Below, piece after piece: positions 1 through 47,427 of a stretch of DNA of 64,000 nucleotides (positions within the stretch are counted from its first letter, which is position 1; each line of letters starts with the position of its first letter). Below the pieces are notes generated by a model. That model was given only the letters and a program-made list of their open reading frames with translations. It did not search any database and was not told the origin of the DNA. Source of the DNA: a virus. The stretch is from positions 1 to 64,000 of IMG/VR virus record IMGVR_UViG_3300013126_000019, one strand, 5' to 3'. The position numbers and the translations under genes were made by a program.

Positions 1-49
1 AGCTTTGGTCACCATCAGCACTTAATATGGATAATATCCACTTTTTCAT
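1..49 (-). CDS. 5' end of a probable holin/small membrane protein (runs off the window start)
   Basis: ATG at 49-47 overlaps the endolysin stop (TAATG); reads MKKWILSILSADGDQS..., lying immediately downstream of a putative endolysin. Function inferred from position only. Confidence 0.4.
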   Translation of the reverse strand, partial: MKKWILSILSADGDQS

Positions 50-594
50 TAGAACTCTCTTAGTAGAGTATAGGTAAATTTCTTATATCCACTGCTCTTG
101 CATGCTACCATAAGTTTAGCAAAATCTAGTGGATTATTTAATACTTGGCATCCTGCAGACCATTTATCTATAAGTTTAGACATGAAAGAGGGGTTAGCTC
201 TATGAATATGAATACCAAACATTCCTGTATCTACAGTACCTTGTTCTTCAGCTACATCATCTTTATCAGCATCTCTGTATACCGGTAAAGGCTTAGTTTG
301 AACTAGAGCTTCATATTTACCCTGGTGTAATCCAAATCCAAATGAATCTTGATACTGCCCTGGTTTTAATACAGCCGTGCCTTTAGGGTTCATAAGGTTT
401 ACTAACCAGTATGTCCCCGGGTTAGTAGTACATGTGTATACTTCTAACTTTGTACCATTGATGACATATATATTATCATCAAACTTATTTTTTTCATTAG
501 CTTTAGATCTTACTCCAATGATGTGAAAGCTAGGCCAAATATATCCTTGTTTAGTAAACTCCGCTTTGAGTTCTTCATATGTGTAATTTTTCAT
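49..594 (-). CDS. putative endolysin, YkuD/L,D-transpeptidase-like cysteine peptidase fold
   Basis: 181 aa; GIHIHRA...WSAGCQV matches the H-x(n)-S-x-G-C catalytic pattern; follows the structural module and precedes a probable holin. Confidence 0.6.
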   Translation of the reverse strand: MKNYTYEELKAEFTKQGYIWPSFHIIGVRSKANEKNKFDDNIYVINGTKLEVYTCTTNPGTYWLVNLMNPKGTAVLKPGQYQDSFGFGLHQGKYEALVQTKPLPVYRDADKDDVAEEQGTVDTGMFGIHIHRANPSFMSKLIDKWSAGCQVLNNPLDFAKLMVACKSSGYKKFTYTLLREF

Positions 595-3500
595 TAGTTT
601 TTACTTTTACCTGTTTCTGATTTGTATGTGCTTGTTCCAAATGCATCTGTGCCGGGAATATTGCTTAATAAACTATTTAAAATAGATGAGCTACCGCCTT
701 TTTTCTTCTCTATTTGTACAAAGTTTCTGATACCTAAGTTAGGATCTACGTTATTACCTGTAACACCTATTGTTTTAAAGAAGTAGTTTGCAAGTTTAGC
801 GCCGCCTTCTTTTTGAAAGCTATATGGACCAATATCTCTTTTATAATAAGCAGACGGGTCACCTGACAGTGTAGGAATTATAGAAGTTAATATTTTAACA
901 TATGCTTCAAAGGTAGTTCCATAAACCGCTGAGGTGACTGCAAGCTTTTGAGAGTAGTCATCAAGACCCAATCCTGGTAACGGAATCCATGACTCAGCAT
1001 TAGATCTTGTCTTTAATAATAGTAACAGAGCATGGTTTTCTAAAAAGCCATCAAAATGGAATGGCGGGTTATCCTCATCTACCATAAGACCTGGAAGAGG
1101 ACCACTTCTATCTCTAAGCTTTTCATATTTATCATCATCATCCATGTCAAATCCAAATAGTAATCTGATAAGGATACTGTTTAATAATATATGCGCTGCT
1201 TCTATAAGCATTTTATAAGTAGCTTGTTTTTCTTCATCTGTTAAATACAGGGCGCCGTTTCTTAGATTAAGCATATTACGCTTGAGTGCATTAAGCGCTC
1301 TAACATAATATCCCATATCTGTATCTCCAATACCAACATCATATCTCTCAGAAGCATCCCAGAATCTACCGCGGTGAGCAAACCTGTTCATCATACCTCT
1401 AGTAAAGTATTTCTGCAAGAAGTTTATGTACCTATATATAACATATCTGTTTGCTTCAGGTTGATCTAATGTAGCAAAAGCACCATTGACATTTGTAATT
1501 ACAGCCTGAACTCTGTTTCTGAAATTCTTAAACTCAGTACCCTTAGATATGATAAAATTTTCTTTTATTTTTTTATCTAAGTCTTCTAAGTTATCATCTT
1601 TAAGCCTATTATACTCACGCAGTCTATCGACAGGTACCTTAAATTTAGATGCTATACTATCTAGTGTCTCGTTAGGGCCAATTGTATAATTGATTGGTGC
1701 GCCGTACTCAAGATCAATACCCTCTTTTAAGACTGGTGTGCCGTCTTTTATTTCCCAAGCATCAGCATAGTTTATCATAACTTGTTGACCGTCAACCATT
1801 TGAGGAATTCTCTTATGGCTTAACATGCCCCATAGTACAGACATCTGTGCTTGTATATCTAACCACTGACGGGTACTTGTTAACCAAGTCATTTCAGCAG
1901 CATCACGTGCTAAATTTCTAGTAAGATCTCTACCCAAGTGTTTTTTAAACATACCTTGACCTGGATCAAACATCATTGATACTTGTAGATCTAATGGTCT
2001 GTCACCTTCATCGTGATAAAGAGACCAACTAAGACTACCCATAACCATACCTGCTCTAGCAAGACCTTTTTGGTAGCTTAACATATTCATGTGCTTACCT
2101 GCAGCGGCTTCAATGTTATTTTGTATGATGGCATCAAAATAGTTAACTAAAGCACTACTTGTGTTTAAACCAAAGAAACCTAAAGACGCCCTCTTAAATA
2201 ATTTATTAGTCAGATTAACAATCCACTTTTGGCTACCAAATCCGGTGCTAGTTTTACCAAGATATACCCATTCATAGAAGTTATCTATATTTTTAGCTCT
2301 TAGGTTTGCACCTTTTCTTGATCTCTTAGATGATACCTTATCATCTAACCAGTCATTAGCACCAACAGCATAGCGCTTATTCATTTTCTGAATAGGCTCA
2401 ACAGTTTTATAGTTGCCGGTTCTAGGATCTCTTAGTGAATCTTTAAGTGCTTTTGCTATAGGATTAATCTCTAGTAACTTTTTCTGCATCTCTAAAGAGT
2501 ACCCATATCTTAACATAGTATTAGTTACCTCAAGACTTACATTTTCATGTTCAATTTGCGATATACCATGAACAGGGATACCATCATTATCATCATCAAA
2601 CATATCACCCATCATAATACCTTTTTGTACTATTGGATTTAATCCTTGATCAGCATCATCTTTTGCTGTTTTAAAGAAATCTCTAACATTTTGCCACCAG
2701 CGGGTAGGTGCATTTTTAAGATCTGCATATTGTTCTACAGAACCACCAATAAGCCCACCTTCAATACGGAATCTAGGAGCATCAAGATAGATACGAGAAC
2801 CTCTAGGTTTTTTATCTTGTATGTGTAAGTGCTGTTTCTTTAGAGCTTGCAACAAATCAAAAAGTGCAGGTTGGGTATCTTTTATAGTGTAGTATTCTTC
2901 ATTTATAAAAGGGCTATCCGCAGGAGCATTGTCTTCTTTTGCTCTTGGCAACCAAGCTCTAGATCCTCGACCCGAGTTATCTACAGTTCTACCAACCTCA
3001 TATGGAGTTTTATATTTTGGATCTACGATACTTGACCAGTATGCATTGCTAGGAGCTCTATTAGGAATAGTTTGTTCTACGCCATTAAGATCAACATATG
3101 TAGTTTGCATATATGCTGTTTCATCTGTTGGCACATTATTTCTCCAAATATCTAATGGTTCATTTATAACAGTTTTATTTCTGTTAGCATCATATCTCAC
3201 ATTTTGCACGTGATTATTTTGTATAAACGCTTTTAGTTTTTGTGATGACTCATATTGTATTATTTCTTCTGGAGTACCGTCTTTTTTACCCTGGTTTGAA
3301 AGGTCTTGTAATAGTTGTAAATTCTCTAAAACAAGTTCTATATTATCTCTAGTTACAATTCTTGAGTTAAGGTATGAGTACATTTCATCAGTATCCAAGT
3401 CTTGAAGTAATGTATTCCAGATTTCAAGATATTGATCGGTAACAACTTTACCTTTAAGATTTCTAAGTTTAGCATATAAAGCATTAATAGCAATTTTATC

Positions 3501-6500
3501 AGCCTTTGTCATTGTTACCGGCTGAAGTATAGCTTTGATTCTGTTATACTCTTCTATTTCAGCTTCAGTAAATTTCAACTTTTTAGTTGGATTGCTTTTA
3601 TTATATGCCGCTTTACTATTAAAACTATTATAAAAGTTTTGTTCCTCCTCAGTTAAAACTTTTAATGCTTTATTAAGTCGTGATTGGTTTATATTAAGTT
3701 GTGCTTGTCTAACTTTTTCCACAATATCTTGAGGAACATCTTTACCGTGTAATTCACCAGTTTCAGGATCTGTATATTGTTTCTGAATATCTCTTATATA
3801 CTGTTGATCTTCAGTAAATGTGTCTCTTGCCTCTTGAGGATATTTACTTTTTATTTTAGCAATATCATCTAGAATTTCTTTTACCTGTTTATCAAACTCT
3901 TCTGTAAATTTTACTTGAGTATTTTCTCCTATAAATTCTTTAACAGCAGACTCAAATTCAGGAGAGTTTTGATCAACTCCTGAGTTAACAAGGTTCTGCA
4001 TAAAGTCTGTAATTGCTGTTTGGAATGCCCCTGCTCTTAAAACTCTACTTCTAAACTTACGCTTAGAGTTTAGATAATTACGTAGCAATTCCGCTTTTTT
4101 AGCATCTCTTTCGGCCTTTGGTGTATTATCAGCATATTTTGTAGAAAGCATTAAAGACAATTCTCTTTGCAATTCTTTTTTTCTATTAATAGCTTGCTGA
4201 TACTCATTTGGATCGCTATAAAAGGTCTTATCAATAGCATTAACTTCTTGCCATTTATCATTATATTCTTCACGTGCTTCGCGGCCCTCCTCAGTTGATT
4301 CTATCTCAAACTCGGGTTCATATACAGCAGGATCATATTCTTGCCAGAAGTACTTCACCTTATATTTTCTATAGTCAGCTTTTGCTTTTCGCCATGCATG
4401 TATCTGATCTTTATTACCAGACTTGTATGCAGCAGTACGCATGTCTTCTAACTCTTCTTCTTTTTTAGCTATAAATAACCTGTAATCCTTAATAGGAGAT
4501 ATAAAGGTATGTACATTAAACTCTTCTACACGACCATCTTCATTAATAGTATAACTCTTATCTAAAAAAGTTGTTGCTCTACCTACAGCTGCAGGATCTA
4601 ATGGATTATCTAATCCGGCAGCACGCATCTTAGGCCCGATATCTTTATTAAAACTCTTTTGAATTTTAGCAAAGTTTAAGTCTACATCAGACAAAGCATT
4701 TTTAGTAAACATTGCAAAAGAAGCTGTAACAGGATCTTGGTTATGTAAATAACCCTCTAATAAACTATTAACTTGACCGGCGTCACCTAGTTCACCTGAA
4801 AGAATCATTTTAAACTTTTCAGGAGTAAGTCTTATTGCTTCATACTTTTTTTGAAGCTTGGCTAAATCTTTTTGTAGACCGTCTTTTTTAGTACCTTCTG
4901 CAGCTGCAATTTTATCTTCTAAATACTTTTTATTTCTCTCGTATTTCTCATCTATAGCTTGACCCATAGGCTGTAATTGCTCATAAAGAATAGGTCCGAT
5001 TGCAGCATTATTTACCTTGTTAATCTCGGCATTTAGTTTTTCAATCTCAGATCTAATACTAGTAACTAGAGAATATAAAGGTGAGTCTGTTCCGATGTAC
5101 TCATTATTCTCAGGATTATCTATCTGATTAATTACAAACTTGATATAGTTATTCCAATAAGATGCAAGCTCTTTATAATTAGTAAGGGCATACATTGCAT
5201 CTACGGAAGTTTTAGGATCTGTTATAAGCTTTGTCTTTTGTCTTGCATCTTTTGCAATACGCTCCATAACATTTTTAAGTCTTCTTAAATTGGATACATA
5301 GACCTGGGCTCTTATAGAGACTTTTTTCATCATCTCAGCATCGGTAAGTGCTGTATCTACAATTTCTGAAGTATACTCAGCTAGATTTTTTCTAATTGTC
5401 TCAAGCTCATTTTTACTATATCTGTCTTTAATAGCATTAAGTAACTCAGATGCATTATACGAGGCCGCTAATCTTTCTAGTGTCTGAGCTGCAGCTAAGT
5501 ATGTTGCAGATATTTGTTTATTTAGCGCATCGGGACCAAGTTTTATTATGTCATCAATTGCGGCATCACGCTCTGATGTATAGTCAAACACATCTTGCTC
5601 AGTTATTGCTTCTGTATTTAAATCTATTTTATCCTCAAGGATCATTTTTAGCACATCCTCAAGTGAAGTACTCTCTGATAGTTTGTCCAGCTTGATGTTT
5701 TTACCAAAGATTTTTCTAAGCATCTTGCGGAGCCTATAGAAAATGTTTTTGATAGCATTCATAAAGCCGTTTGTTACAGGCTCAGCTTTAATAGAACTCA
5801 TATACATTTCTGTTAAAGCTCTTACCATAACCTCATCTTGAATATATGGTGAGTCTTCTGACAAACTAGGATTATCCAAAAGAGTTTCTTGTAAAATAAG
5901 ACTACCCTCTTCTGTACCTATGATATCTGAAATAAGTTTATCATAGACCTTTTTGTTATCTGCTCTTAAACTTTTAACAAAGGGATGTGAAAACTCATGA
6001 AATACATCTTTACGAGTAATGTTATTTGATACAAAATATACAGCGCCGTTATTAAAAAATGCTTTTTGCCCGCCATAGTTTTTCTTTTGTGCGGTATGCA
6101 TTTCTTTAGCCTGGTCAACTGTAATAAAGTTTACACCTACTTGATTACCATAATTATCACTAAGGGTACCGATAAGCTCATTAATACCATCAGTAACAAA
6201 ACTAGACTCGGACTCTTTACCAAATGTATTAAGTGCTGAAGTAGCCAGTGACGAATCTAGATTTGCTTTTATATATAAATCAATCTCGCTTCCTAAAGGA
6301 CCGTCGGTCCCTACTGTAAATTCTGATTTGTATTCTAAAAATTCTTCTGCAATTTCAGGGAAGCGATCTTTAAACTCTAATATTCTAGAAGGATTCTCTT
6401 TTATGATAGAGCGTACTACATCCTCTACAGGACGGACCATACCATTTGATCTAAATACTGCATCTTTTACAGCTTCAAATAATCCAACACCTTCTGTGTT

Positions 6501-6557
6501 AGAACTTAATTTTGCCCACTCTGGGCTACTAGTATCTACTCCGCAATACATGTTCAT
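594..6557 (-). CDS. giant virion cargo/ejection protein with N-terminal zincin-like domain and internal LysM
   Basis: 1987 aa; HEFSH (5985-5999) with downstream DEVM; LysM-like YTIGPNETLDSIASKFKVPVDRLREYN (~1600-1695); hydrophobic C-terminal segment LIEAAHILLNSILIRLLFGF; directly follows the vRNAP gene. Confidence 0.7.
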   Translation of the reverse strand: MNMYCGVDTSSPEWAKLSSNTEGVGLFEAVKDAVFRSNGMVRPVEDVVRSIIKENPSRILEFKDRFPEIAEEFLEYKSEFTVGTDGPLGSEIDLYIKANLDSSLATSALNTFGKESESSFVTDGINELIGTLSDNYGNQVGVNFITVDQAKEMHTAQKKNYGGQKAFFNNGAVYFVSNNITRKDVFHEFSHPFVKSLRADNKKVYDKLISDIIGTEEGSLILQETLLDNPSLSEDSPYIQDEVMVRALTEMYMSSIKAEPVTNGFMNAIKNIFYRLRKMLRKIFGKNIKLDKLSESTSLEDVLKMILEDKIDLNTEAITEQDVFDYTSERDAAIDDIIKLGPDALNKQISATYLAAAQTLERLAASYNASELLNAIKDRYSKNELETIRKNLAEYTSEIVDTALTDAEMMKKVSIRAQVYVSNLRRLKNVMERIAKDARQKTKLITDPKTSVDAMYALTNYKELASYWNNYIKFVINQIDNPENNEYIGTDSPLYSLVTSIRSEIEKLNAEINKVNNAAIGPILYEQLQPMGQAIDEKYERNKKYLEDKIAAAEGTKKDGLQKDLAKLQKKYEAIRLTPEKFKMILSGELGDAGQVNSLLEGYLHNQDPVTASFAMFTKNALSDVDLNFAKIQKSFNKDIGPKMRAAGLDNPLDPAAVGRATTFLDKSYTINEDGRVEEFNVHTFISPIKDYRLFIAKKEEELEDMRTAAYKSGNKDQIHAWRKAKADYRKYKVKYFWQEYDPAVYEPEFEIESTEEGREAREEYNDKWQEVNAIDKTFYSDPNEYQQAINRKKELQRELSLMLSTKYADNTPKAERDAKKAELLRNYLNSKRKFRSRVLRAGAFQTAITDFMQNLVNSGVDQNSPEFESAVKEFIGENTQVKFTEEFDKQVKEILDDIAKIKSKYPQEARDTFTEDQQYIRDIQKQYTDPETGELHGKDVPQDIVEKVRQAQLNINQSRLNKALKVLTEEEQNFYNSFNSKAAYNKSNPTKKLKFTEAEIEEYNRIKAILQPVTMTKADKIAINALYAKLRNLKGKVVTDQYLEIWNTLLQDLDTDEMYSYLNSRIVTRDNIELVLENLQLLQDLSNQGKKDGTPEEIIQYESSQKLKAFIQNNHVQNVRYDANRNKTVINEPLDIWRNNVPTDETAYMQTTYVDLNGVEQTIPNRAPSNAYWSSIVDPKYKTPYEVGRTVDNSGRGSRAWLPRAKEDNAPADSPFINEEYYTIKDTQPALFDLLQALKKQHLHIQDKKPRGSRIYLDAPRFRIEGGLIGGSVEQYADLKNAPTRWWQNVRDFFKTAKDDADQGLNPIVQKGIMMGDMFDDDNDGIPVHGISQIEHENVSLEVTNTMLRYGYSLEMQKKLLEINPIAKALKDSLRDPRTGNYKTVEPIQKMNKRYAVGANDWLDDKVSSKRSRKGANLRAKNIDNFYEWVYLGKTSTGFGSQKWIVNLTNKLFKRASLGFFGLNTSSALVNYFDAIIQNNIEAAAGKHMNMLSYQKGLARAGMVMGSLSWSLYHDEGDRPLDLQVSMMFDPGQGMFKKHLGRDLTRNLARDAAEMTWLTSTRQWLDIQAQMSVLWGMLSHKRIPQMVDGQQVMINYADAWEIKDGTPVLKEGIDLEYGAPINYTIGPNETLDSIASKFKVPVDRLREYNRLKDDNLEDLDKKIKENFIISKGTEFKNFRNRVQAVITNVNGAFATLDQPEANRYVIYRYINFLQKYFTRGMMNRFAHRGRFWDASERYDVGIGDTDMGYYVRALNALKRNMLNLRNGALYLTDEEKQATYKMLIEAAHILLNSILIRLLFGFDMDDDDKYEKLRDRSGPLPGLMVDEDNPPFHFDGFLENHALLLLLKTRSNAESWIPLPGLGLDDYSQKLAVTSAVYGTTFEAYVKILTSIIPTLSGDPSAYYKRDIGPYSFQKEGGAKLANYFFKTIGVTGNNVDPNLGIRNFVQIEKKKGGSSSILNSLLSNIPGTDAFGTSTYKSETGKSKN

Positions 6558-9500
6558 TATTGTTTAAAGCATAATCTTTGATTGATAACCTCCAATACCA
6601 TTGCATCTGTAACAAATGTTGCATCTGCCGGCCCGGCTTCTTGCGTAACTACTTCAGAATCTGAATTAATATTATCTATTCCAAAATGACCAAGCAACTG
6701 TTGAGACAAATATAAGAAAGTTTTAGGAGCTTTTGCCATAAGTGCATTAGGTGGTATTTTTCTAAAGTCACTTGCACCTAGCATACCTTGACCAAGTCCT
6801 AGTTCTGGCATAATAACACTTGTATTACCTGGTATAGTACGCAAGTATTCTTCAATTCGGGCAATGTCCTCATTTATCATTTGAACATTAGCCTCATATG
6901 TAGCATCACTCAAAGAATCAGCGGCGCTATACATATTACCAAATGTTCTAATAGGTAGTACATTAGGGTACTTTACGGCTAAATGATTCATTACACCAAC
7001 AGTATTACCAATATTAGCAAGTTTATAATCTGGGTTTGTTGTACCGTTAAATAAAAAGACAGTTCCCGGTTGAATTTTTACAAGCTTTTCTATATCAGCA
7101 GGTTTAGTATTTTTAATTGTGTATACTCTATTACCAGATGAATTAGTTGAAAACGTTATAGCTCCTCCAGATGATACGGCTGACTCATCGTCTAAAAGTC
7201 CTGTAGGTTTTTCAAGTCCCATTTTAGTAAATACATCGGGAGCAATATAATTTTTATATCTATTTCTAAGAGTAAAGTTTGATATAGCATTTTGTGAAGC
7301 AAATCCTATAAGATATGCTGAGAGTACATTATTAGGTATCTTACCTTCTTTAGTTGCTGTTTTAACAGCTTCTTTTTTAAGAGCTAGTATACTATTATCA
7401 GGAACCACTTTCCATAATGCATGCTCACCTTTTGCAGATATACCCGTAGATAAACTAATTACCATAGGCAACATACTCATAAGTTTAGCAATTTCTTCTT
7501 TATCACTATAAGAAATGTTAAACATGTTTTTTGCAGGATTAGACAAAGCTTCATAGTCTTCACGCAATCTCTCTATGTAATTTGATGATGGTCTTTTAGT
7601 AGCAAGCTTTAAAGTTTTTATACCTGTCTTGTTACCTTTTTGATATGCAATACGCAATCCAGAAGTACCTAACAAAGGGTACGCTTCATCAATACCCGGG
7701 TATTTATTTTTTAGATCGTATACTCTTTCTGCATATGAAGGTCCATTTTCAGGGGACCCTCTAAATATTTTATAACTATTATAAACTGCATCTAAAGCTT
7801 TATCTCTAAGAACCATTTCATAGGCCTGTCTTAGTACTGTACCTCCCGCACTATCTTTAATAGGTTTTAACGCAATGCTTAAAATTTGCTTATAGATTTC
7901 TTTGTTCTTCTCACTTATAGTAGCAACATTGTTTGATATATTGAGATTTCTGATGTTGTTTTCCGATAAGAATTTTCTAAGTGCAAAAGCGCTCGGATTA
8001 ACTATAAAAGGAATGTTTCTACGTTTAGCAACATCCTCTAATATCTTAACACTAGTGCTATTAGCATTACCGATTACTACTGTACCATCTGAACTTTCTA
8101 AATTTAAAATTTCTGAGTACATTGCTTTTTCACTAGAGGCTTCTAATACACCATACTTATCTCTAATAATTTGTTGGTACTCCTTATTAATCGTATCTTG
8201 TGTTACAACTTTTTTAGTATAACCTTTAGTTTCTAAACCTAAATCTTGTGCAATATCTAAAACAAGTTGATCAAACTCAGTATCAATTCCTGAAGTTATA
8301 GTTTTTACAGCAATAGGTAATGATGCCAAGGTACCTTGCTTAGATCGCATATCAATAATAATCTTCTTAGAGTCAGCAAATTCAGGGCTAGCCATTACTG
8401 TCTCTATATCAAGAGTATCTCTCAATACCTCTCTAGTAAGAACAAAATTTGCATATTCTTTTAATGAGCTAAACATAAACGGGGTCACGGGAGCTGTACC
8501 CACTGTTTGATTACTTAAATCACCAGTTAAAAGATTTGTATAATTTTTCTTAATTGCATCTCTATTTACATATAGAATTCCATTTTGAACAAATGCTCCA
8601 AAAGATCTAAGTGCAGGTGCATCTTCAACTGGTATTTCATCTTTTACAATAAGACCGCTAAAAGACTTAAGCTTATCAATGTTAACTTCATTAATATAGT
8701 TTTGTAATAAGAATTGTACAAAACCATTCTTAAACTCTTTAATAGTACCTGATAAATCACCGGCAAAAGATTTATTACTAATTGCAGCAATATTCTGAAT
8801 ATTTTGTTTGATAAAGTCATTTACTTCTTCTTTTTCTCTTAAAGCAAATAGATTATCGCCAAGAAGATCCTTAGCAACATCAGCAACATTGAACATAGAT
8901 ATTACAGAGTCACTAAATAGTTTTTCAACTGATGGTCCATAAAATCTTGGATCGGATATTAAAAGCTTTGAAGCAGCATCTTTTTGAACCATATCAAATA
9001 TGGTAGTTTCTTTTTTAGTGTCAAAGTTTATATTTTGCTTAATATCCTTAGGTGCTTTTGATAAATCCTCAGCTTTAAAATACTCAAATAGTACAGCAAT
9101 ATCTAGATCTGAATAGTTACCTGCAGGCTTACCAACATTTGGATTAAGTATTCCCGCATTAAACAAATTAAATTGTGTTAGTTCATAACCATTTGCTTCT
9201 TCAAACTCATTGTAAAATTTCTGTATTGCGGCCTCAAGATTCTGGTTAAATTGGAACTTAGCAGTCCTAGTCTCATTTTCATCTAATAATTTTAGACCTA
9301 CAGATTTAGCTAAACCTTCTGAAAACCATTTACTTGTTTCATAATAATGGGTGCCATCTTCATCAGTTACATTACCTAAAGCTTTCACAATATCGGCTCG
9401 AGCTTTTCCTTGAGCGTAATTAGGATTTTCAGGTGCTATATTTAAGATTTTTGCAAAAGGACTAGCTAATAATGCTTGTCTTCTAACGTAATCTCTTACA

Positions 9501-17233: not shown

Positions 17234-18738
17234 TACTTACACTTTAAGGCGTTTAAAAAATTCTGATCAAATTTAACAAAATTACCGTCACTATCCCTAA
17301 CATTACTTATTGATTCTGCTACTTTTTGTGGATCTTCAATATAACGCTCAATAACACTTTTGCTTATGTTAAAGCTTTCTTTAAAGTCAGCATCTAGCTT
17401 AAGAGAAACAGGCACATCATCTATCATGAGACCTTTAACATCATCTTTACTAATTTCAATAAGTTCTCCTTCTTTATTTAAGATAGTGAATTTATCAGTA
17501 TCCACCTTTCTTAAGTAGCCAATTTGTCCATCATTTGTAACAATAATATCATTTTTCTTAAACTGGATACGGCTTGTCTTACCTTCTAAAAGTTTATCCT
17601 GGGCTTCACTATAAGCATTACTTATAGATTCAATTGTAACACCTTTTGCATTAAAACCTGAAATATCTCTAATATAAGAGTCTACTACGGATTCAAAAGC
17701 TTGATTTAACTCCTCTACTTGAGTATACTCTAAAAACTTATCTTTAATTTTTTGGTTAATACCTTCCTTAATTGCAGATAGATTAAGGGATTCTTCTGGA
17801 CTTAAAGTTAGCTTAAGTGGTGTTTTTGAAACAGCTAGTTTATAATCTCCTGAAGATAATTGTCTTATTTCAATTTTACCAAAGCCCAGACCAGCCGTTG
17901 TATTAAACTGTCTTACCTCATTAGCAAGAGCTGTGTATTTATCAGAACCAATAAATTCTTGATCCGGTGTGGTAGTCTTACCAAAACTTTTATTAATGGC
18001 TTTAATAGCAGACTGAGCAGTCATGCCTACATAAATATTTGGCCTGTTAACAAGAAATCTTGCTCTGGCTTCTGCAGAGTTACGAATTTCATCTGTAGTA
18101 AGTTTAGGCAATTGTAATGGATTGAATTTGAATCCGTTAGCAGTCCCAAATAATATAGGTTCCCCGTTAGCATCTAAGGAATTAGAAAATTTATTATATC
18201 CAGATATAGCCGTATTGTCTAATACTACCAATACATTAGAGTCTATAGTGGGACCTGCATAAAAACCGCGGACTTTAGCCACTGCTGCAAAATCAAAGAA
18301 CTTTTTTGCTGTTACAGCTAAATTTGGATCATTGTAATCCAGTTTAAAGTTTTCTCCTCTATTTGCATTATTATAAAGTTTGACTAAGTTGGCAACACGT
18401 GAATCTGCAAAATCTAAAAAACCAATTCTTGTATCTACAAATCTAATGTTATCTAGAGTCTCTAGTCTAACGTCACTAGTCGGTTGCTGACTATACACTA
18501 TAGCTGTATCAGAAGAACTAATTGAGGGGTTATCATAAACTCTTTTTATAGCTTCCCAATTACCAAATTCTTTTATAAAAGTTTTAGTATAAGTCGCCGC
18601 CCATTTGCCTAATGCTTGTTTAGAATCATTATCAGAAATCTGCAATAACTTTTCATATAATGAAGAGTTTAAGCCATTAGGTGCTAGAACTTCACTAACA
18701 TTGCCAGCATCGTCATATATAATTGAACATTGAATCAT
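17233..18738 (-). CDS. putative virion cargo protein between two giant ejection genes
   Basis: 501 aa; N-terminal APNGxxSxLY...FxxxFGxW motif resembling N-termini of crAss-like giant proteins; TAATG overlaps at both ends; Cys only at residue 4 and the penultimate residue. Confidence 0.6.
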   Translation of the reverse strand: MIQCSIIYDDAGNVSEVLAPNGLNSSLYEKLLQISDNDSKQALGKWAATYTKTFIKEFGNWEAIKRVYDNPSISSSDTAIVYSQQPTSDVRLETLDNIRFVDTRIGFLDFADSRVANLVKLYNNANRGENFKLDYNDPNLAVTAKKFFDFAAVAKVRGFYAGPTIDSNVLVVLDNTAISGYNKFSNSLDANGEPILFGTANGFKFNPLQLPKLTTDEIRNSAEARARFLVNRPNIYVGMTAQSAIKAINKSFGKTTTPDQEFIGSDKYTALANEVRQFNTTAGLGFGKIEIRQLSSGDYKLAVSKTPLKLTLSPEESLNLSAIKEGINQKIKDKFLEYTQVEELNQAFESVVDSYIRDISGFNAKGVTIESISNAYSEAQDKLLEGKTSRIQFKKNDIIVTNDGQIGYLRKVDTDKFTILNKEGELIEISKDDVKGLMIDDVPVSLKLDADFKESFNISKSVIERYIEDPQKVAESISNVRDSDGNFVKFDQNFLNALKCK

Positions 18739-21700
18739 TACTTACAGGCTTTAGTTTTTTGGTTAATAATAGTATTTATTTCTGATTGAGAAGGATTGAT
18801 ATCAGATAAGCTGATAGTTCTTTTTGTACTACTTACCGGTATTACCAGAGAGCTCCCAGCATTAGGATGTATCTTATTAAAGCCATCCCATTGATTAGTA
18901 TCGAGAGCGCCATTTTTAGCTTTTGGCTTAGCACTAAAAGATCCCGCATCAAAAGCTCCTAATGTAAGATCTTCTGGTTCAACACTGAAATCTTTCATAA
19001 TAGACTCAGCTTCTTTTTTTATACCATTAATACTACCAGTAAACTCTCTTACAATAGTATTACCTTTTTGGTCTTTGAATATAAAAACAATACTTGATCC
19101 AGAAAATCTACTATACTTGCTTTTGCCATCAGCACCTTTACTAAAAGTAAAACTTTGTGCTTTGACACCTGCTTTAGTTGTTAAGCAATAAGAAGCTTTG
19201 TACAAAGATTCTTGGGAATCCCAATTAATATCTGCAAATTTCCATTGTAAAAGTTTAGTGACAGCAATGTCATCATTACTAAGCTCTGATGCAATTTTGT
19301 ACTTAAGCTTTACAGTATTTTCACCTTGAGCATTTTGCGGCATGAATTGGAATACAGGTACATAATCTGTTGGTTTAATGTCATAGGTACCTATTCTCTT
19401 TTTAAATACTTCTCTTGCTTCATTTAACTTTTCAGTAGTAGTATATCTACTAAGGTCACCACCTACATCATCCATGATATAGAAATGTGCAACACCAACT
19501 GTATTATCAAAAGTCATTTGACCCACGCGATCTCTAGTTGAGTTACTTGGTCCGGCAAGGTATTCAAATCCTACATCATTAAACCATTGATTACGGTACA
19601 TTAATAAACTATCAGTACCAGAACCTTGACCATCTTTAACAGCACCTAAACTTTGAAAATAAGTATTTTCTTGTATATATGCTAGGCGGTCTTCATTATC
19701 CTTAATTGCTTGAGCGTTTGCAACATCTTCAACAGTCTCTTCTTTAACATTTGATATATCATAAAGACCGTATTTAATAAACCCTCGCATTATTGTTTGC
19801 TTATAAGCATCAGATACGGGTAACCAGTACATAGTATTATCAATAGCATTGCCAACACTCCATGTTGGTTTTGCCATATCTTCTTCCACTGTTGAATTAA
19901 CACCCATATCAAAACCTGCAACACCTGTATAAAGACCAGAGGCCATACTCATTGCAATAAGAACATTTCTAAGTCTTTTGATAATTCTTCTTATGATACC
20001 ATCTTTCTTAGTTTTGGGTGCTTGATCTAAATTTGTTTTAGCTCTTCCAAGAGTAGTACTACTAAAATATCTAGTGACTGCATTTTTAATATCTGTAATG
20101 ATTTCAGTCACAGATTTCTTTTCTTTATCAGCTATCTCTTGAAGTTCTTCAGCTGTAGCCTCTTCTTTTACAAGTTCCTCTATAGGTGCAGCTAATTGAT
20201 TTGCTAGATTACCCACAGCATCCTTACCATCAGTATTATTAATAGATTCAGATAATACAGTCATTGGGCTTTTAGAACTGTTAGCCTCAAATTTATTATA
20301 CTCATCATCAGCCATACCAAGACCTTCTTGCAGGTCAACAAGTTTTCTAACTTTAGCATCTGTAAAGCCAGTCATATCTTTAGCAAGAATCTCAAGATAT
20401 CTATATGAATCTTCAGATAGCTTGCTCATTAATACTCTAAACTCACGGTTAGTTAAGAAGTAAGCTGCAACTTGGTGTGCAGGATTCTTATCTAATATAT
20501 AGTTGAGTTTATCTAAAGTATCTTGGTATGGGTAGCCTTCTGCAATCTTTTGTCCTAGTATAGTTTTGATAGCCTCAATTCTAACTTTAGCTTTATTATC
20601 AAAACGCTCCATTGCAATACCCTTAACTTTGCTATCAATATATTGATGTATAAGTTTATGTAGGGTAATTTCCATAGGACTAGAGTAACCAAGTAATACA
20701 GAGTCACCAAACTTAGTACCAGCGGTATCTAGGTTTCTAATAGTTTCCGGGCTAATAGCAAAACCGTTAGCAGAGAAAAATTGGGAAAATCCATAAGTGT
20801 TTAAAAGATCTGTTATAAAATCTGATAACTGATTCAAGCTGTTATCTTCTCTTTCTAGACCTGTTACTGTTATGGATGGTAAAGTATCAATAGGAGTTAT
20901 AGCAGACTTTTCTCTTCTCTTTGCTACATTCTGATATGTATTTTTTACAATAGTCCCTAGCTTACGCATAAACTTAAGTACTCTATCTAATAAAGTCTTA
21001 AGCTTTTCACGTACTTTACCTGTTGTATTTTTATGTGCTCGGCGAAGTTTCTCATATGCATTATTCATAGCCGGTACCATTCTACCATAGCTTGTTTGCA
21101 TAGATTCTCTAAGCTTAGTAGAGGCTTCTCTAATATCATTAAGAGTTTGCTTAGCTCTTTCTGTTAGAGGTGCGACCTTACCTTCAGTAGCTTTACGCTC
21201 AATTTCATTAAGCTCATTCTCTACTTCTGTTGTAGCATTATCAACCCCAGACATACCCTCATTAACATCATCTCTAGTTTCAGGATTTTTATTGATGTCG
21301 TCATTTACTTCTTGCTCCTCAGTCTTTTCTGGTTCTGTTTGAGTAGTTGTAGTCGTTGTAGTTGTTGACCCCGCTTTTTTCTTAAGTACTGGAAGTTGTA
21401 TGTTAACTGTATTATTTGCCTGATTCCACATCACACGTGCAGTAGGCATAAGAGCTAATACCTTTTCTTTTATCTTATCAAATTCTTCTCTAGTTGCAAC
21501 ATTTATTTCAGTATACAAAGCTTCTTTCTCTTCTTGAGTCTTTGCATTTTGAAGACCTTCTTTTGAAGCCTGATTTAAAGTAATACTATTTGTAACAGGA
21601 TTGTCACTTGCATCTGTAAGAATTTCATAACCTCTATCAAGTTGTTGTGAGTAAACGCGAAGACCCTCTAAAGATATATTAGTTGTTTCAGTATACTCAT

Positions 21701-24700
21701 GATCAGCAGGAAGTCTAGACTGAACTTCAGACAGCATAGTTTTAAATGCCTCTTTATTAGCGGACTCATTAGACATTTTAGAAGTCCATCTGTTTGTTGG
21801 CTTTCCGTTTTCATATATCCGCACATACCCTACATAATCATTATTACTTGTTCCTGACATAAGTACATCAACAAGACCTGATGCATCACCAGTATACTCA
21901 GCTATACCTATACCATTTACTTCTGAGTAGTTAGAAATAGTAGAACCTGCAATACCACCTCCAATAGCTTGTGCAAACTCTGTTGTCTCAGGGAATAAAT
22001 CTGTGTTTCTAGTAGCTTGTGTGTCTATAGAAGTACTATCTTGAGTTTCTACAGGCTTGTTATACTTTGCTTCAATCTCATCAATCCTATCTTGTACAGG
22101 TTGTAAAGCATCTCTTAATGGTTGTAGGTTAGGTGTTGTATCATTTAAGATAGCTGTGATCCAAAAAGGTTTTGGTGATCCGCCTTTAGCAACGTCCTCT
22201 GCTGTAACATTTTGAAATAACACAGCTGTAAGTTTACCACTTGGATCCCTTGCCACATTAAGCTTACCACCATATGTTAAGTTAAAAGTTTTATTAGCAC
22301 CAAATGGATAATCTTCTTTAGGACCAAATATTTCTGGCATTGTTAGCTTTTCAGCCTCAGCAATGATTATTGCATCCTGCATTTCAGTTTGAACAATACT
22401 TTCTTTTTGAAGGGTTATAGCTGTATTGACAATATCACCATAAACTTGCATAATCTCATGCTGTCTAGGTGTAAGATCTTGACCGTTTTCCTTTCTAGTT
22501 TTAATATCTGTGAGGATATCATCTGAAACATTATTAGTTTCTCTAAATGTTCTTAGGTCATCATCTGAAATAACCTCTACACCAGCTTGTACATTTGTAC
22601 CATTTGCTGCAGTAGAACCAGGTTGTTGAGATTGAGCGTTAGGATTTACTCTTCCTGTTTGACTATTTATATTATTTATAAGGATATTAGCAACGGGATC
22701 TGTTGTAACAAACTTTTTAAAGTCATCTTCAGTTGGAGCAAATGATGGATCTTGCGCTGTCTTTTGTTTAACAATGTCATCATAATACATTTTTAAAGCT
22801 TGGGCATATTCGGGGATACCGACTATTTCCTCAAAAGGCATGTCTTGTGTAACCGGTACGCCTGTAGGAGTAGGGTTAGTTGAAGAACCTCCAGTAGCTG
22901 GAGTACTTCCAGCCATATTTGCATTAGGATCAATATTAAATGCTGTAAGGTCTACAGCTTCATCAAGTAATGTTTGTTTTGTGCTAGGAGCTAATTTAAA
23001 AATCTTGGTAAAAAAATCACTTAAAGCTTTTTTAAATTCTTGCCATAAAGACTTTGGTGCCGCTCTTTCACCAGTATACTCAATTGTTCTAAGAGTCATC
23101 TGAAAATTCAGATTAGTCAAAGCTTCACTAATGAAGTTTTCCACTGAGTCTAAACCCAAAGGCATTTGAGAAAAGTTATTATCTTTATCTAATATGTTTT
23201 GCTTAGCTATGTTTAATAGGTTTTGAGCTTTTGCTTTAAAAGTATCATTCTTTTCAAACTCTGTACTAACAATACCTTTTAAGATACCACTAAGTATAAT
23301 AGGCTCAGCTTTGAGAATACCACCAGAGTAGTCTATAGATACGTATCTTAAATCTATCAATACACCTGTTGCTTCAGAATAGCTAACAGGCTGTGAAAGG
23401 TTTCTAACAAAGGTTACTCTTGCAGCACTACTTACTAAACTTTTAAGTCTTTTAGCAAGCAGCTTTTCAGCAGGCGTAGCCTGTGGACTTCTTGACAAAG
23501 CTTCTAATACATCTTCTGTAGATGAATAAGATTCAGTAGTATCCTCAGAAGCACCGTATTGCTTAGATAATGTAGACATGTTTCTGATATCATCTTTTGA
23601 CCGTTTGACTCTTGTCATAGTATCAAAAGGTTGAAACTCTGGAATTAGTTTACCACTTAGAGTTTTACCAGTTGTCCTTTCAAATTTATCTATTTCAGCT
23701 AATAGATCTTTATACTTAGGGCTTGTGTGATCAAGCTCTTCCATAGTAGTAGAATCAATAAAAGCTTCTGGTAATACCGAATCATCTTCAAAAGCCTGAG
23801 CATACTTAGGGTCATAGAAAATCCCCTTATGCATTAAATTATTTAAAAATGCATTTAAATCTTTTTTATGCTGTAGTTCATCAAATATCTTGGTGTTATT
23901 TTCCTTGTGCATTTTATGCACATTCTCTAAGGCTTGTTTAATCCTACCATGATGTGCTTCAAATCCTGCAGGATCATAAAGCATATTTAATGAATCAATG
24001 CTATTAGAAAAATCTGCACCATGATCTATCATCTCTCTTAGTGAATCAAACACATCATCAATATTTTCTGATAATGGTGTTTCACTAACTTCAGAAGCCA
24101 TACTTTTTATAACATCAAAGAAAGCATCTCTTAGATCTGTAGCATGACTTTCAATTTTATCTGTAACAGGGTCTATAGTTTGATCTGTTTCCCCATCTTT
24201 TTTCTTTTGGTACCTATTTCTTACATAATCAGCAGGAGCGTTTTTCTTAGCATCCTCATACAATTCATAAGCTGATAAGTATTTATTTAACAGCTCTAGT
24301 CTATTATCAATCTGTGCAAGTCTAGCTGCAGCCTTATCCGAAGTAGTAGCAGTTTGTTCATAAGCAATACGCTCTTTATTAAGCATATCAATCTCAGTCT
24401 TGATTCCATTATTAGTTAAAATGCTAGTGAACTGGGTACCTGAAATATTAGAAATAGGTTTTATCTTACCAGCTTTATCAAGTAAATCTGCAATATACTG
24501 TTGAGCAAGTACTGTATTTGTTTTTAAGAAAGCTAAATCAAATTTAACTTCCTCTACTGCTAAATACTTATATGCTTCCTCATTATATTTTTCCGGCTCT
24601 TTGGTTCTATCAAAGTTAAATGGATTGTAACGGTTTTCTATTTTCTCAGCTTCTTTAAAGCTTTTCTCCATTACATCTACCTTACTAAGAATATTTTCAA

Positions 24701-26783
24701 CTCTATCTCTTAGTGGTTTGTTATTAGCGTCACCCTCAAGTTTGTATCCAGCAAACGCTGCTTGAAGATCTTCATCAGACATTTTGAGATACTCTTTAAA
24801 GGTATCTCTTAGTAAGTCTACCTGACCAGCTTTAAATAAGGTTTGTATACGTTTTAGTAATTGGGCGTCTTGACTAACCTTAGCTTGTTTATTGTCTCCA
24901 GCATTTTGAGAAGCAAACACATGCTCATAAAAATTAACTTGGTGAGCCAAGTCATTTTCCATAGCATTAAAGTATGACATTGGATCGGTGTCTAGATCAG
25001 TAACTATATCAGTCATCTGTTTTCTAAACTCTGCTCTTTTTTCTTTTGCAGTACTATAATCTTTACTAATACCGGTTTTATCTGCAATAATCATTGGAGC
25101 TTTATACATTGACCAGTTAAGTGCCTTACTGTATGTACCTAATCCTCCACCAATAGCAAATCCGCTTAAGAATGTTTGTAAACCTTGAGTTGTAAATTGT
25201 TCTTGAATACCCTTAGACATAGAAGCTCTTAGACCCTTGGCCTGAGCAATATCAGGTGTGTTATATAGTGTTGTGTAATAATCTGTGTAGGCAATATTTA
25301 GCATCTCCTGAGCATTTTCTTGGAGACCCTCCATACTACTACCTAAAGCAAAATTTGAAAATCTGCTAGGCGCTGTTTGTAGATAGTGTTTATAAAAAAG
25401 CTTACCCTCTTTAGAAAACGGTAATACAGCTCTTCTTAAATTTTTACCAACACCATTCTCAAGAAAAACTCTCTTACCATTATCCATAACATACTTACCA
25501 CCAAGAGATTCACTTAGCTGTAAAAGTCTTGATGACTTAGGCAGCATTCTTCCTAACAAACTGTCAAATACAAATTTGTTAGTCATATAGATTACCATTG
25601 AATTCCAAGCTGTAGTTTCACCACCACCCTTTAATGCTAATTCATAGGCACGTTGAGCATCTTCTTGAGAAAGATTTGGATTTGCTTTTAAAATACCATC
25701 ATATATGTCATTCTGTGCAGTACCTCCTTCAACCCGCGCTTCCGATAAAGCCATGTTTATTTCAGAAGCATCTCTGAAAAAATCACCAAAGTAAGCTTTA
25801 TTTTTAGACAACTCCTCCATAGTTCTACCAGCTCTGACACCTTTATAGGTATCATATACATTACTTGTTGTTCTATAGAAAGGATTTATTAATGCGTTGG
25901 CTGTTTTTCCTGCACCAACTCCTGCAAACTTTGCAGCTTGCCAAAAGTCTTTAGCTCTATCTACAGTTTTTATTGTATTTAATAGTTCAGCACCAACTCT
26001 GATACTTCTACCTAAAGCACCTACATTACGTACAGTTCTTAAAAAGCTAACACCACCCGCTGATCCTTCTGATAAAGCTGTAATACCTACAAGAGCTGCT
26101 TCTTCTAAAGCAAATTCAGTAACAGCTCCCATGGAATATTGTAAAGAAGACATGGTATTAGCAGCACCACCCCAAAAACCACCTCTGTTAGTTTGATACA
26201 ACTCCATTGTATCTGTCATTAATCTTGCCGCAGCGGGATCTGTGGGTTTATTCCATTCAAACCAGTTAGTTGCTTGATCAACCATACCTGCTTTAAATAG
26301 TCTATTGGGGGCAACGGCTGTTTTAAAGTCTTCCCAGCCACTTGCATATCCTAAGTATCTATCTGTATTGTCTAAGTATGGTGAAAATCCAAGTCTATCA
26401 AATGCGGAATGATTATAAGCTTTTGCAAAATTTAAACCATTATTAGCAGCTCCGTATATACTTATTGCACCTGCTGATTTAGGATCATAAGAAAAGTTTC
26501 CATTATTTAAATAATCAGCTATGGATGATCCTGTAACATTATTATTTGGTCCGGTTAAACCGTTACCTCCAATATTCCTATAAGCCTGTGAAAGAGGTGT
26601 TGGAGTAAATTTACTAGTGTATAAATCAGGTAAGTTATTTGAGCTAAATGCTGGCACGTTAGCATCCGGTAATTGTGTACCTGAATTACTTTGAAAAACT
26701 GGCGGTGTCGCAAGTGATTGTGATAAATCCTCAGAAGTAAACAAAGGATTAGTAGCTTGAGTAGTTTCAGTATTTTCTTCCAT
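18738..26783 (-). CDS. giant virion cargo/ejection protein, multidomain, with hydrophobic segments
   Basis: 2681 aa; Gly/Ala-rich hydrophobic stretches (EEAALVGITALSEGSAGGVSFL, FLSGFAIGGGLG); two degenerate zincin-like regions; Thr/Pro/Gln linkers; lies in the cargo block upstream of the vRNAP. Confidence 0.65.
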   Translation of the reverse strand: MEENTETTQATNPLFTSEDLSQSLATPPVFQSNSGTQLPDANVPAFSSNNLPDLYTSKFTPTPLSQAYRNIGGNGLTGPNNNVTGSSIADYLNNGNFSYDPKSAGAISIYGAANNGLNFAKAYNHSAFDRLGFSPYLDNTDRYLGYASGWEDFKTAVAPNRLFKAGMVDQATNWFEWNKPTDPAAARLMTDTMELYQTNRGGFWGGAANTMSSLQYSMGAVTEFALEEAALVGITALSEGSAGGVSFLRTVRNVGALGRSIRVGAELLNTIKTVDRAKDFWQAAKFAGVGAGKTANALINPFYRTTSNVYDTYKGVRAGRTMEELSKNKAYFGDFFRDASEINMALSEARVEGGTAQNDIYDGILKANPNLSQEDAQRAYELALKGGGETTAWNSMVIYMTNKFVFDSLLGRMLPKSSRLLQLSESLGGKYVMDNGKRVFLENGVGKNLRRAVLPFSKEGKLFYKHYLQTAPSRFSNFALGSSMEGLQENAQEMLNIAYTDYYTTLYNTPDIAQAKGLRASMSKGIQEQFTTQGLQTFLSGFAIGGGLGTYSKALNWSMYKAPMIIADKTGISKDYSTAKEKRAEFRKQMTDIVTDLDTDPMSYFNAMENDLAHQVNFYEHVFASQNAGDNKQAKVSQDAQLLKRIQTLFKAGQVDLLRDTFKEYLKMSDEDLQAAFAGYKLEGDANNKPLRDRVENILSKVDVMEKSFKEAEKIENRYNPFNFDRTKEPEKYNEEAYKYLAVEEVKFDLAFLKTNTVLAQQYIADLLDKAGKIKPISNISGTQFTSILTNNGIKTEIDMLNKERIAYEQTATTSDKAAARLAQIDNRLELLNKYLSAYELYEDAKKNAPADYVRNRYQKKKDGETDQTIDPVTDKIESHATDLRDAFFDVIKSMASEVSETPLSENIDDVFDSLREMIDHGADFSNSIDSLNMLYDPAGFEAHHGRIKQALENVHKMHKENNTKIFDELQHKKDLNAFLNNLMHKGIFYDPKYAQAFEDDSVLPEAFIDSTTMEELDHTSPKYKDLLAEIDKFERTTGKTLSGKLIPEFQPFDTMTRVKRSKDDIRNMSTLSKQYGASEDTTESYSSTEDVLEALSRSPQATPAEKLLAKRLKSLVSSAARVTFVRNLSQPVSYSEATGVLIDLRYVSIDYSGGILKAEPIILSGILKGIVSTEFEKNDTFKAKAQNLLNIAKQNILDKDNNFSQMPLGLDSVENFISEALTNLNFQMTLRTIEYTGERAAPKSLWQEFKKALSDFFTKIFKLAPSTKQTLLDEAVDLTAFNIDPNANMAGSTPATGGSSTNPTPTGVPVTQDMPFEEIVGIPEYAQALKMYYDDIVKQKTAQDPSFAPTEDDFKKFVTTDPVANILINNINSQTGRVNPNAQSQQPGSTAANGTNVQAGVEVISDDDLRTFRETNNVSDDILTDIKTRKENGQDLTPRQHEIMQVYGDIVNTAITLQKESIVQTEMQDAIIIAEAEKLTMPEIFGPKEDYPFGANKTFNLTYGGKLNVARDPSGKLTAVLFQNVTAEDVAKGGSPKPFWITAILNDTTPNLQPLRDALQPVQDRIDEIEAKYNKPVETQDSTSIDTQATRNTDLFPETTEFAQAIGGGIAGSTISNYSEVNGIGIAEYTGDASGLVDVLMSGTSNNDYVGYVRIYENGKPTNRWTSKMSNESANKEAFKTMLSEVQSRLPADHEYTETTNISLEGLRVYSQQLDRGYEILTDASDNPVTNSITLNQASKEGLQNAKTQEEKEALYTEINVATREEFDKIKEKVLALMPTARVMWNQANNTVNIQLPVLKKKAGSTTTTTTTTQTEPEKTEEQEVNDDINKNPETRDDVNEGMSGVDNATTEVENELNEIERKATEGKVAPLTERAKQTLNDIREASTKLRESMQTSYGRMVPAMNNAYEKLRRAHKNTTGKVREKLKTLLDRVLKFMRKLGTIVKNTYQNVAKRREKSAITPIDTLPSITVTGLEREDNSLNQLSDFITDLLNTYGFSQFFSANGFAISPETIRNLDTAGTKFGDSVLLGYSSPMEITLHKLIHQYIDSKVKGIAMERFDNKAKVRIEAIKTILGQKIAEGYPYQDTLDKLNYILDKNPAHQVAAYFLTNREFRVLMSKLSEDSYRYLEILAKDMTGFTDAKVRKLVDLQEGLGMADDEYNKFEANSSKSPMTVLSESINNTDGKDAVGNLANQLAAPIEELVKEEATAEELQEIADKEKKSVTEIITDIKNAVTRYFSSTTLGRAKTNLDQAPKTKKDGIIRRIIKRLRNVLIAMSMASGLYTGVAGFDMGVNSTVEEDMAKPTWSVGNAIDNTMYWLPVSDAYKQTIMRGFIKYGLYDISNVKEETVEDVANAQAIKDNEDRLAYIQENTYFQSLGAVKDGQGSGTDSLLMYRNQWFNDVGFEYLAGPSNSTRDRVGQMTFDNTVGVAHFYIMDDVGGDLSRYTTTEKLNEAREVFKKRIGTYDIKPTDYVPVFQFMPQNAQGENTVKLKYKIASELSNDDIAVTKLLQWKFADINWDSQESLYKASYCLTTKAGVKAQSFTFSKGADGKSKYSRFSGSSIVFIFKDQKGNTIVREFTGSINGIKKEAESIMKDFSVEPEDLTLGAFDAGSFSAKPKAKNGALDTNQWDGFNKIHPNAGSSLVIPVSSTKRTISLSDINPSQSEINTIINQKTKACK

Positions 26784-30196: not shown

Positions 30197-30249
30197 AATT
30201 ATGCTATAAAATTATTACAAATCATTTAGATTTACTAAACTTCAAAAAT

Positions 30250-33108: not shown

Positions 33109-33111
33109 GTC

Positions 33112-46893: not shown

Positions 46894-47427
46894 TTATAAT
46901 GTCCGTATAATAATTATTGCACTTTCTGAGGTAGCTGTACCGCAGTCAGTTGTAACTTTAAAAAAGTATTGAGTACTAGAATTTAGGTTGGTTAACGTAT
47001 AACTAGTTACATTTAATCCTGAAATAGCGGTAGTTGTAGAAGGAGTTGTTCCATAAGATAGTGTATATGACTCAGCTCCGGTATCTTCCCAATTAATGAC
47101 AATTGCTGTAGTTCCTACATATGATGGATGTAAGTTTACCACAGCTGTACAATCGGGATCATAGCTATTAAAAGATAATGCCTGAAATGCATTTTCTAGT
47201 GTAGCTCCTGCAGGCAAACTATAGCCTGTAGTACCGGCAAAAGAACCAAAATTATAAATTTGGTAATCTAGATTATGTTTTACACAAGTATCCTGGATAG
47301 TTTCATAACACGGTGTTGGATCCGGGCAAACTGTATCAGGAGGGCAGGTGTATGTAGGCATGGTTGTAAGAGGTAAATCCTTACAACCACACTTATTATT
47401 TGTACAATTACATGTTTTACAAGCCAT
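46894..47427 (-). CDS. Cys-rich structural protein with C-terminal fibronectin type III-like domain
   Basis: 177 aa; N-terminal MACKTCNCTNNKCGC; FN3 pattern IVINW...YTLSY...YTLTNLNSSTQYFFKVTT. Confidence 0.6.
   Translation of the reverse strand: MACKTCNCTNNKCGCKDLPLTTMPTYTCPPDTVCPDPTPCYETIQDTCVKHNLDYQIYNFGSFAGTTGYSLPAGATLENAFQALSFNSYDPDCTAVVNLHPSYVGTTAIVINWEDTGAESYTLSYGTTPSTTTAISGLNVTSYTLTNLNSSTQYFFKVTTDCGTATSESAIIIIRTL

Follow-up and report, generated by a model that had tools for sequence, protein, structure and literature searches.

The 64,000-nucleotide window analysed here, taken from the virus record IMGVR_UViG_3300013126_000019 (parent record 80.7 kilobases, ~67% complete), raises the question of why four consecutive giant genes encode proteins almost free of cysteine (Cys), with nearly all of the few Cys residues placed where the end of one protein faces the beginning of the next. 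Open reading frame (ORF) calling located this giant-gene block on the minus strand, downstream of the terminase, portal and major-capsid genes, which matched the PHROG families for terminase large subunit (E 9e-61), portal (E 1.5e-86) and major head protein (E 2e-31), respectively. Judged by sequence, the four genes encode the RNA-polymerase cargo of a crAss-like phage, a divergent one in which domains have been shuffled. We think it probable that the terminal Cys residues mark head-to-tail contacts that are locked by disulfides, making the cargo a linear thread. The four links of this putative chain, with lengths in amino acids (aa), are as follows.

18738-26783, minus strand: first link (A-type), 2681 aa, with Cys2533 and Cys2680 and an N-terminus without Cys
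17233-18738, minus strand: adaptor link, 501 aa, with Cys4 and Cys500 only
6557-17233, minus strand: virion RNA polymerase (B-type), 3558 aa, with Cys3 and Cys3555 only
594-6557, minus strand: last link (C-type), 1987 aa, with Cys5 only and a C-terminus without Cys

Counting by script found seven Cys residues among the 8727 aa of the four proteins, six of them (6/7) within five residues of the three junctions at which two links face each other. Their positions are listed in gene order, except that the terminal residue of the first link precedes its internal one.

18744-18746, minus strand: C-terminal Cys2680 of the 2681-aa protein (...KACK, -2 from the C-terminus)
19185-19187, minus strand: internal Cys2533 of the 2681-aa protein (KASYCLT)
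18727-18729, minus strand: Cys4 of the 501-aa protein (MIQC)
17239-17241, minus strand: Cys500 of the 501-aa protein (...LKCK)
17225-17227, minus strand: Cys3 of the polymerase (MSC)
6569-6571, minus strand: Cys3555 of the polymerase (...LCFKQ)
6543-6545, minus strand: Cys5 of the 1987-aa protein (MNMYC)

The chance of finding at least six of seven Cys residues in the 30 junction-terminal positions out of 8727 is 1.2e-14. The outer ends of the four-protein series lack Cys. Taken together with three cargo-like giants that lie outside the chain (listed below), the giant proteins contain 7 Cys in 11856 aa (0.059%), compared with 142 in 8967 aa (1.58%) for the other minus-strand ORFs of the window. 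This recount returned every Cys coordinate and residue given in the original prediction, which had been read from the letters of the window, including the lone internal Cys in KASYCLT; it likewise confirmed that both ends of the chain, the N-terminus of the 2681-aa protein and the C-terminus of the 1987-aa protein, are Cys-free.

Pairing of terminal cysteines in related loci

We fetched 80 IMG/VR loci around polymerase homologues and scored the 77 that were non-redundant, taking as a junction any place where two neighbouring Cys-poor ORFs, each at least 400 aa long, meet. In the raw table, 127 junctions had Cys on both sides, 50 had Cys on neither side and two had Cys on one side only. Both discordant junctions were artefacts. 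In locus L055 the start had been over-called, and the TAATG-coupled start gives MRRDC; in L071 a poly-A frameshift interrupts a polymerase that starts MVNC. The corrected junction table was 129/50/0 (both, neither and one side, respectively; Fisher p 1.4e-45), and in every chain the first protein had a C-terminal Cys only and the last protein an N-terminal Cys only. The enrichment of Cys at adjoining termini and its absence from chain ends, first claimed for the window, extends to its relatives. The frameshift in L071 lies at about 7640-7800, where a run of ten A residues breaks the polymerase frame ~60 codons past MVNC; it is likely to be a sequencing error or a programmed slip.

The number of links varies between phages. 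The cargo blocks of phi14:2 (gp67-gp66-gp65) and crAss001 (gp47-gp50-gp49) have three links, whereas in the window the 501-aa adaptor, which comes after the first protein and before the polymerase, makes a fourth; L010 shares this four-link form. phi14:2 follows the Cys rule exactly: gp67 ends in its sole Cys, gp66 contains no Cys other than Cys3 and Cys2179, and gp65 none other than Cys3. In three further loci (L033, L037 and L069), a two-ended link of 574-754 aa (574 aa in L033 and 583 aa in L069) follows the polymerase and precedes the last protein. In seven other loci the last protein is unsplit (2,340-2,742 aa), and its N-terminal ~570 aa share 40-52% identity with the links of L033 and L069. 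At the position of the break, where the split forms read ...NNCFR / MYTC... and ...NSCKL / MSKC..., the unsplit ones are free of Cys. We counted the window's 501-aa link with those of L033 and L069 among the splits that gain a Cys pair.

Fusions had the opposite effect. In cr108_1, where a gp47-like protein and the polymerase are fused, there is no Cys at the N-terminus or at the fusion point, and the next junction keeps its pair (...NLCK then MANVC...). Another A-B fusion, gp32 of FpV4, has one Cys in 4,287 aa, at -2, and is followed by gp33, which starts MAC...; the A/B pair is gone and the B/C pair is kept. By contrast, B-C fusions of the polymerase with the last protein, in CrAssphage LMMB and crAss002, keep the first pair only (...FSCM / MSC... 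and ...FVCS / MSC..., respectively). The crAss002 pair became visible after correction of an over-long annotated start for gp33. In every fusion the two Cys residues that are lost, and in every split the two that are gained, are exactly the ones that the chain model pairs.

Some of these genes also needed re-reading in their own right. The start of crAss002 gp33 (L092 13088-13190) appears to be annotated 32 codons too far upstream, and an in-frame ATG gives MSCTPS..., in agreement with the N-terminal Cys rule and with the LMMB homologue. The polymerase genes of two gut crassviruses, cr116_1 (L006 21101-21942) and cr108_1 (L008 19563-19854), are interrupted inside GSDFDxD. The cr116_1 insert holds a 215-aa ORF that, by eye, is a putative homing endonuclease. 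Because the inserts look like introns, the annotated cr116_1 and cr108_1 polymerase ORFs appear to have false ends.

The rule also holds when partner genes are not on the same strand. In crAss001 the gene for gp47, a 2341-aa protein with Cys2339 alone, lies on one strand and those for gp50 (Cys5, Cys1334 and Cys2404 of 2412) and gp49 (sole Cys5) on the other, and opposite-strand arrangements occur as well in IAS virus, cr116_1 and Kolpuevirus. Since partner genes on opposite strands keep the rule, the signal belongs to the proteins and not to the DNA junctions. Taken together, the concordance of facing ends, the fusions, the splits and the opposite-strand cases bear out the proposal that the facing termini of successive proteins, C-terminal Cys and N-terminal Cys, belong together, and comparison across loci strongly supports head-to-tail Cys pairing. 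A complex prediction for the C-terminal 400 aa of the polymerase and the N-terminal 450 aa of the last link, made from the window sequences only, scored 0.00, which weighs neither for nor against the pairing.

The links and their families

PHROG, Pfam and PDB sequence searches with the four proteins returned little beyond a LysM domain in the last link and, in the polymerase, a cpYpsA match of the SLOG type that stayed below threshold. The 3558-aa protein was nevertheless identified by its catalytic motif, DFDND at aa 2287-2291 (10361-10375, minus strand), whose D2287, D2289 and D2291 are invariant in an alignment of 29 homologues, and by its similarity to known polymerases. Its central part matched phi14:2 g066, annotated as 'Catalytic RNA polymerase subunit' (tblastn, E 6e-6), as well as IAS virus and other Crassvirales polymerases. 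With blastp, the protein was 22% identical to phi14:2 gp66 (PDB 6VR4) over 985 aa (E 1e-16), and a phmmer search of PDB with the whole 3558-aa protein gave no match. The motif and the gp66 similarity support its original designation as a virion RNA polymerase, here of the two-barrel type to which phi14:2 gp66 belongs. From homology and gene order, the four proteins are most likely packaged in the virion and injected; the polymerase-block homologues of phi14:2 and crAss001 have been detected in virions and are packaged and injected.

An exhaustive HMMER search with aa 1701-2900 of the polymerase yielded 1,016 relatives, from which we took 131 full-length representatives, each standing for one 50%-identity cluster and 30-63% identical to the query over the matched stretch. 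An N-terminal Cys (within the first eight residues) was present in 126 of the 131, at position 3 in 91 of them, and a C-terminal Cys (within the last ten residues) in 130 of the 131; 93 polymerases had exactly these two Cys residues. Terminal Cys accounted for 257 of all 311 Cys in the 467,201 aa of these proteins, in which the overall Cys content was 0.067%. In the 29-homologue alignment, C3 and C3555 were invariant columns, where the mean column identity was 23%.

The window polymerase also holds two regions internally, unlike its counterparts in phi14:2 and crAss001, another sign that domains have been shuffled. The first, in the N-terminal third of the protein, contains HEAYH (HExxH, zincin-like) at aa 730-734 (15032-15046, minus strand), with H730, E731 and H734 invariant. 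Polymerase aa 677-820 resemble, by way of cr108_1, aa 2100-2218 of crAss001 gp47, that is, its C-terminal part; because of this resemblance, a metalloprotease-like module appears to be carried by the polymerase member of the chain in this clade. The second is a SLOG-like (cpYpsA) stretch C-terminal to the polymerase core, at aa 2979-3102 (window 7928-8299), for which the Pfam match was below the cut-off. This stretch is similar (E 5e-12) to a separate 837-aa 'molybdenum carrier' that precedes the polymerase in IAS virus, and its presence in the polymerase reads as domain shuffling within the chain.

For the first link, all 20 close relatives of the 2681-aa protein (20/20) ended in ...K(A/S)C(K/Q/KL), with Cys two to three residues from the C-terminus, and none had an N-terminal Cys. 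The internal Cys2533 was retained in relatives down to 45% identity and was Ala in P0160, a 69%-identical relative. It is probably a buried residue of a conserved C-terminal domain, outside the chain.

Orthologues of the 501-aa adaptor (48-75% identity) started with M(I/V/L)QCS, ended in KCK and had no further Cys. C4 and C500 were invariant, including in the 23%-identical, 515-aa counterpart in L010 (MSVNC...TLRC). The N-terminal 64 aa of the adaptor were 44-45% identical to the C-type N-termini of L022, L029 and L034 (E about 1e-8). Because the adaptor's N-terminus resembles those of last links in this way, we take it as a hint that the sockets, the N-terminal modules on which the preceding links would dock, are modular. 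Fold prediction of the adaptor from six sequences had a mean pLDDT (predicted local distance difference test) of 47.6, too poor for placing the termini. We also considered the adaptor as a split-off polymerase N-terminus and rejected this origin, as phmmer and blastp against 150 representatives gave no similarity.

Among C-type relatives of the last link, 34 out of 36 had a Cys at position 2-6, usually as their sole Cys; C5 was an invariant column, and a C-terminal Cys was conserved in none. The 1987-aa protein carries HEFSH at aa 187-191 (5985-5999) and a LysM domain at window 1587-1688, and it is weakly similar to crAss001 gp49. In phi14:2, gp65 has been described as the zincin-bearing partner of the polymerase, which the HEFSH motif fits. 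The orthologues begin MYC, and the TAATG-coupled ATG of the window gene (6543-6557) adds two residues, so that the Cys is residue 5 or residue 3 depending on the start. Because the orthologues begin MYC, translation may truly begin at the second ATG.

A disulfide-locked thread and the competing explanations

The same signature, a sole Cys near the C-terminus of the upstream protein and a sole Cys near the N-terminus of the downstream one, occurs in the cyanopodophage A4 (Anabaena phage A-4L, Saffermanviridae; PNAS 2025). Cryo-electron microscopy (cryo-EM) of the A4 pre-ejectosome showed a disulfide between gp27 Cys1715 and gp26 Cys5, with the C-terminal helix of gp27 inserted in a cleft of gp26 (PMC12002296). 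In the A-4L genome (KF356198), gp27 has 1,717 aa with Cys1715 as its sole Cys, and gp26 has 1,114 aa with Cys5 as its sole Cys. A4 offers one pair in one phage, with no RNA polymerase in the chain, and the finding was not generalised (PMC12002296), whereas in the window three pairs follow one another, a two-ended protein serves as dedicated adaptor, and the pattern is conserved across an order-level group. Searches for homology to A-4L gp26-gp29 with profiles A1 and A2 or with blastp gave no significant match; the resemblance to A4 appears to be one of mechanism, not of family membership.

By analogy with A4, the crassvirus junctions would be closed by disulfide chemistry. In the thread that we favour, the C-terminal tail of each protein would dock on the N-terminal module of the next, from the 2681-aa protein to the 501-aa protein, which would act as an adaptor, and on to the 3558-aa and 1987-aa proteins, and one inter-protein disulfide per junction would lock the contact in the oxidised virion. 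The product would be an unbranched linear thread of ~8,700 residues, which would pass, partly unfolded, through the narrow portal and tail channel, and its links would open in the reducing host cytoplasm. The likely benefit would be that the polymerase and its partners are packaged together in fixed proportion and that their delivery is coupled. Cys would have been retained only at the termini, and lost internally, because internal Cys risk branches or loops and terminal links keep the topology linear. Ejection in gene order, the time at which the bonds form and reductive release in the cytoplasm are parts of this model that we infer.

The atlas of crAss001 provides a structural setting for such a thread: it reports tail and capsid disulfides that join subunits, and argues that the cargo has to unfold in part on its way out (PMC10172136). 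The exit order was proposed there to depend on packing and on mutual interactions of the cargo, which was itself not resolved (PMC10172136). The phi14:2 polymerase paper studied gp66 alone in dithiothreitol (DTT) and pointed out that some phages carry the three proteins as fusions.

Several observations weigh against the disulfide-locked thread. The absence of resolved cargo from the crAss001 maps and the study of phi14:2 gp66 alone in DTT count among them. Virions assemble in a cytoplasm that is reducing, and gut crassviruses inhabit an anoxic environment, which bears on when and where oxidation would occur; searches of the 80.7-kilobase record, itself ~67% complete, turned up neither a thioredoxin nor a glutaredoxin gene. 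The Cys total is odd (7), with the semi-conserved Cys2533 lacking an assigned partner, and the distance from Cys to terminus varies from 1 to 10 residues. Finally, the A4 precedent is only an analogy, because the A4 proteins have no sequence homology to the chain proteins.

A more elaborate form of the thread is possible, and we put it forward tentatively. Here crassviruses in general, and this phage in its four-link form, would use a modular C-terminal plug and N-terminal socket, with a single disulfide as the lock, to fix the stoichiometry and the order of passage; cytoplasmic reduction would both free and activate the polymerase, and links could be inserted, split or fused if each break has a Cys pair, as adaptors of the 501-aa type would illustrate. 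When we asked whether the type of plug follows the downstream socket, Cys-anchored scoring and a plug hidden Markov model did not separate A-to-B from B-to-C tails.

The alternative that survives best keeps the same pairing and changes its chemistry, so that facing Cys would share a metal ion, carry another adduct or belong to a non-covalent plug-and-socket contact. The comparative data prove that the Cys residues depend on each other, not what type of bond they form, and assembly in the reducing cytoplasm would suit such contacts. However, a single Cys from either side is too few for a normal zinc site, and there is no conserved His or Cys nearby (His 0-1%). The invariance of these residues in proteins otherwise purged of Cys suggests thiol chemistry, and in A4 the same signature is a disulfide by cryo-EM. 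We regard this alternative as unlikely.

Less likely again, the terminal Cys could tether each protein to some other partner, such as the Cys-rich capsid, the portal or the tail, or could form homo-oligomers joined N to N or C to C. The many inter-subunit disulfides in the tail and capsid of crAss001 virions would accommodate such tethers, and the several cargo copies per virion would accommodate homo-oligomers. Lone terminal Cys residues that have no partner in the adjacent protein, and may link elsewhere, also point this way; they occur in an 861-aa protein of LMMB (...QSCR, L091 1576-4161), in crAss002 gp30 (...FRCGG..., L092 2393-4066) and in FpV4 gp30 (MKKKC, L093 4054-5850). Independent tethers, however, would not yield 129 two-sided, 50 empty and no one-sided junctions, and they leave unexplained the joint loss of two facing Cys at fusions and their joint gain at splits.

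We consider it very improbable that the two-ended proteins, namely the polymerase and the 501-aa link, each close on themselves from N to C while the first and last proteins pair together. The even Cys count within each two-ended protein would allow this, and sequence alone is compatible with it for the three-link and four-link forms. The fusions are not: the Cys residues left after A-B fusion (FpV4 and cr108_1) are those at the C-terminus of B and the N-terminus of C, and those left after B-C fusion (LMMB and crAss002) are at the C-terminus of A and the N-terminus of B, which in both cases would be non-partners. A closed loop, moreover, could not thread the tail as a single strand.

That the Cys codons are a by-product of the TAATG translational-coupling signal, or of chance, is already refuted: a TAATG overlap is found at all four junctions and flanks all three Cys pairs of the window, but those at 26783 and 594 flank no Cys, the position and codon of the Cys vary, partner termini lie on opposite strands in the four cases given above, and the probability of a chance arrangement is about 1e-14.

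A giant virion RNA polymerase and co-ejected proteins that are near-devoid of Cys are features shared with the Schitoviridae. The virion polymerase of that family is of an unrelated, single-subunit type. Its ejection proteins (N4 gp50 and DEV gp71-gp73) are Cys-suppressed, for which the rationale given is passage through the envelope (PMC11445570). They have no Cys even at their termini, and so no chaining signature, whereas the terminal Cys of the window proteins are invariant or nearly so.

The belief in the original prediction that nothing like this had been described is not wholly accurate, since the gp27-gp26 bond of A4 is published (PMC12002296) and Cys suppression is known in the Schitoviridae (PMC11445570). 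Our literature searches for a disulfide in crassvirus cargo found no description, the crAss001 atlas and the DEV paper being all that they returned, and cargo cysteines are mentioned neither in the atlas (PMC10172136) nor in the phi14:2 polymerase paper.

In the human gut no phages are more abundant than crassviruses, and the cargo that they pack and deliver amounts to megadaltons. A conserved rule, readable from sequence, that tells which protein end touches which turns the packing of this cargo into a concrete and testable model. The rule also serves annotation: it marks true starts (crAss002 gp33, L055 and the window's 1987-aa protein), and it flags frameshifts (L071), introns (cr116_1 and cr108_1) and giant ORFs that belong to a polymerase chain. 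If the thread exists, it would extend the single disulfide of A4 to a general principle, in which terminal crosslinks alone are compatible with threading through the tail.

Neighbouring genes

The cargo-like giants outside the chain adjoin its first link.

26783-36234, minus strand: three cargo-like giants of 1137, 952 and 1040 aa, with zero Cys

Cargo-like proteins that are Cys-free at both ends were also found upstream of the chain in most related loci.

Some proteins of the virion module, at 46894-51157, are rich in Cys (5-6.5%), one starting MACKTCNC and one ending CGCGCESC. They contrast with the cargo block in this respect, and their Cys content may reflect disulfide-stabilised external parts.

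On the other side of the chain, after its last gene, a 181-aa endolysin-like protein (phrog_3000 / phrog_33083) is encoded at window 49-594. In several relatives (L010-L013 and L018), the last link is followed by a protein of equal length that ends ...TYTLL(R/K)EF.

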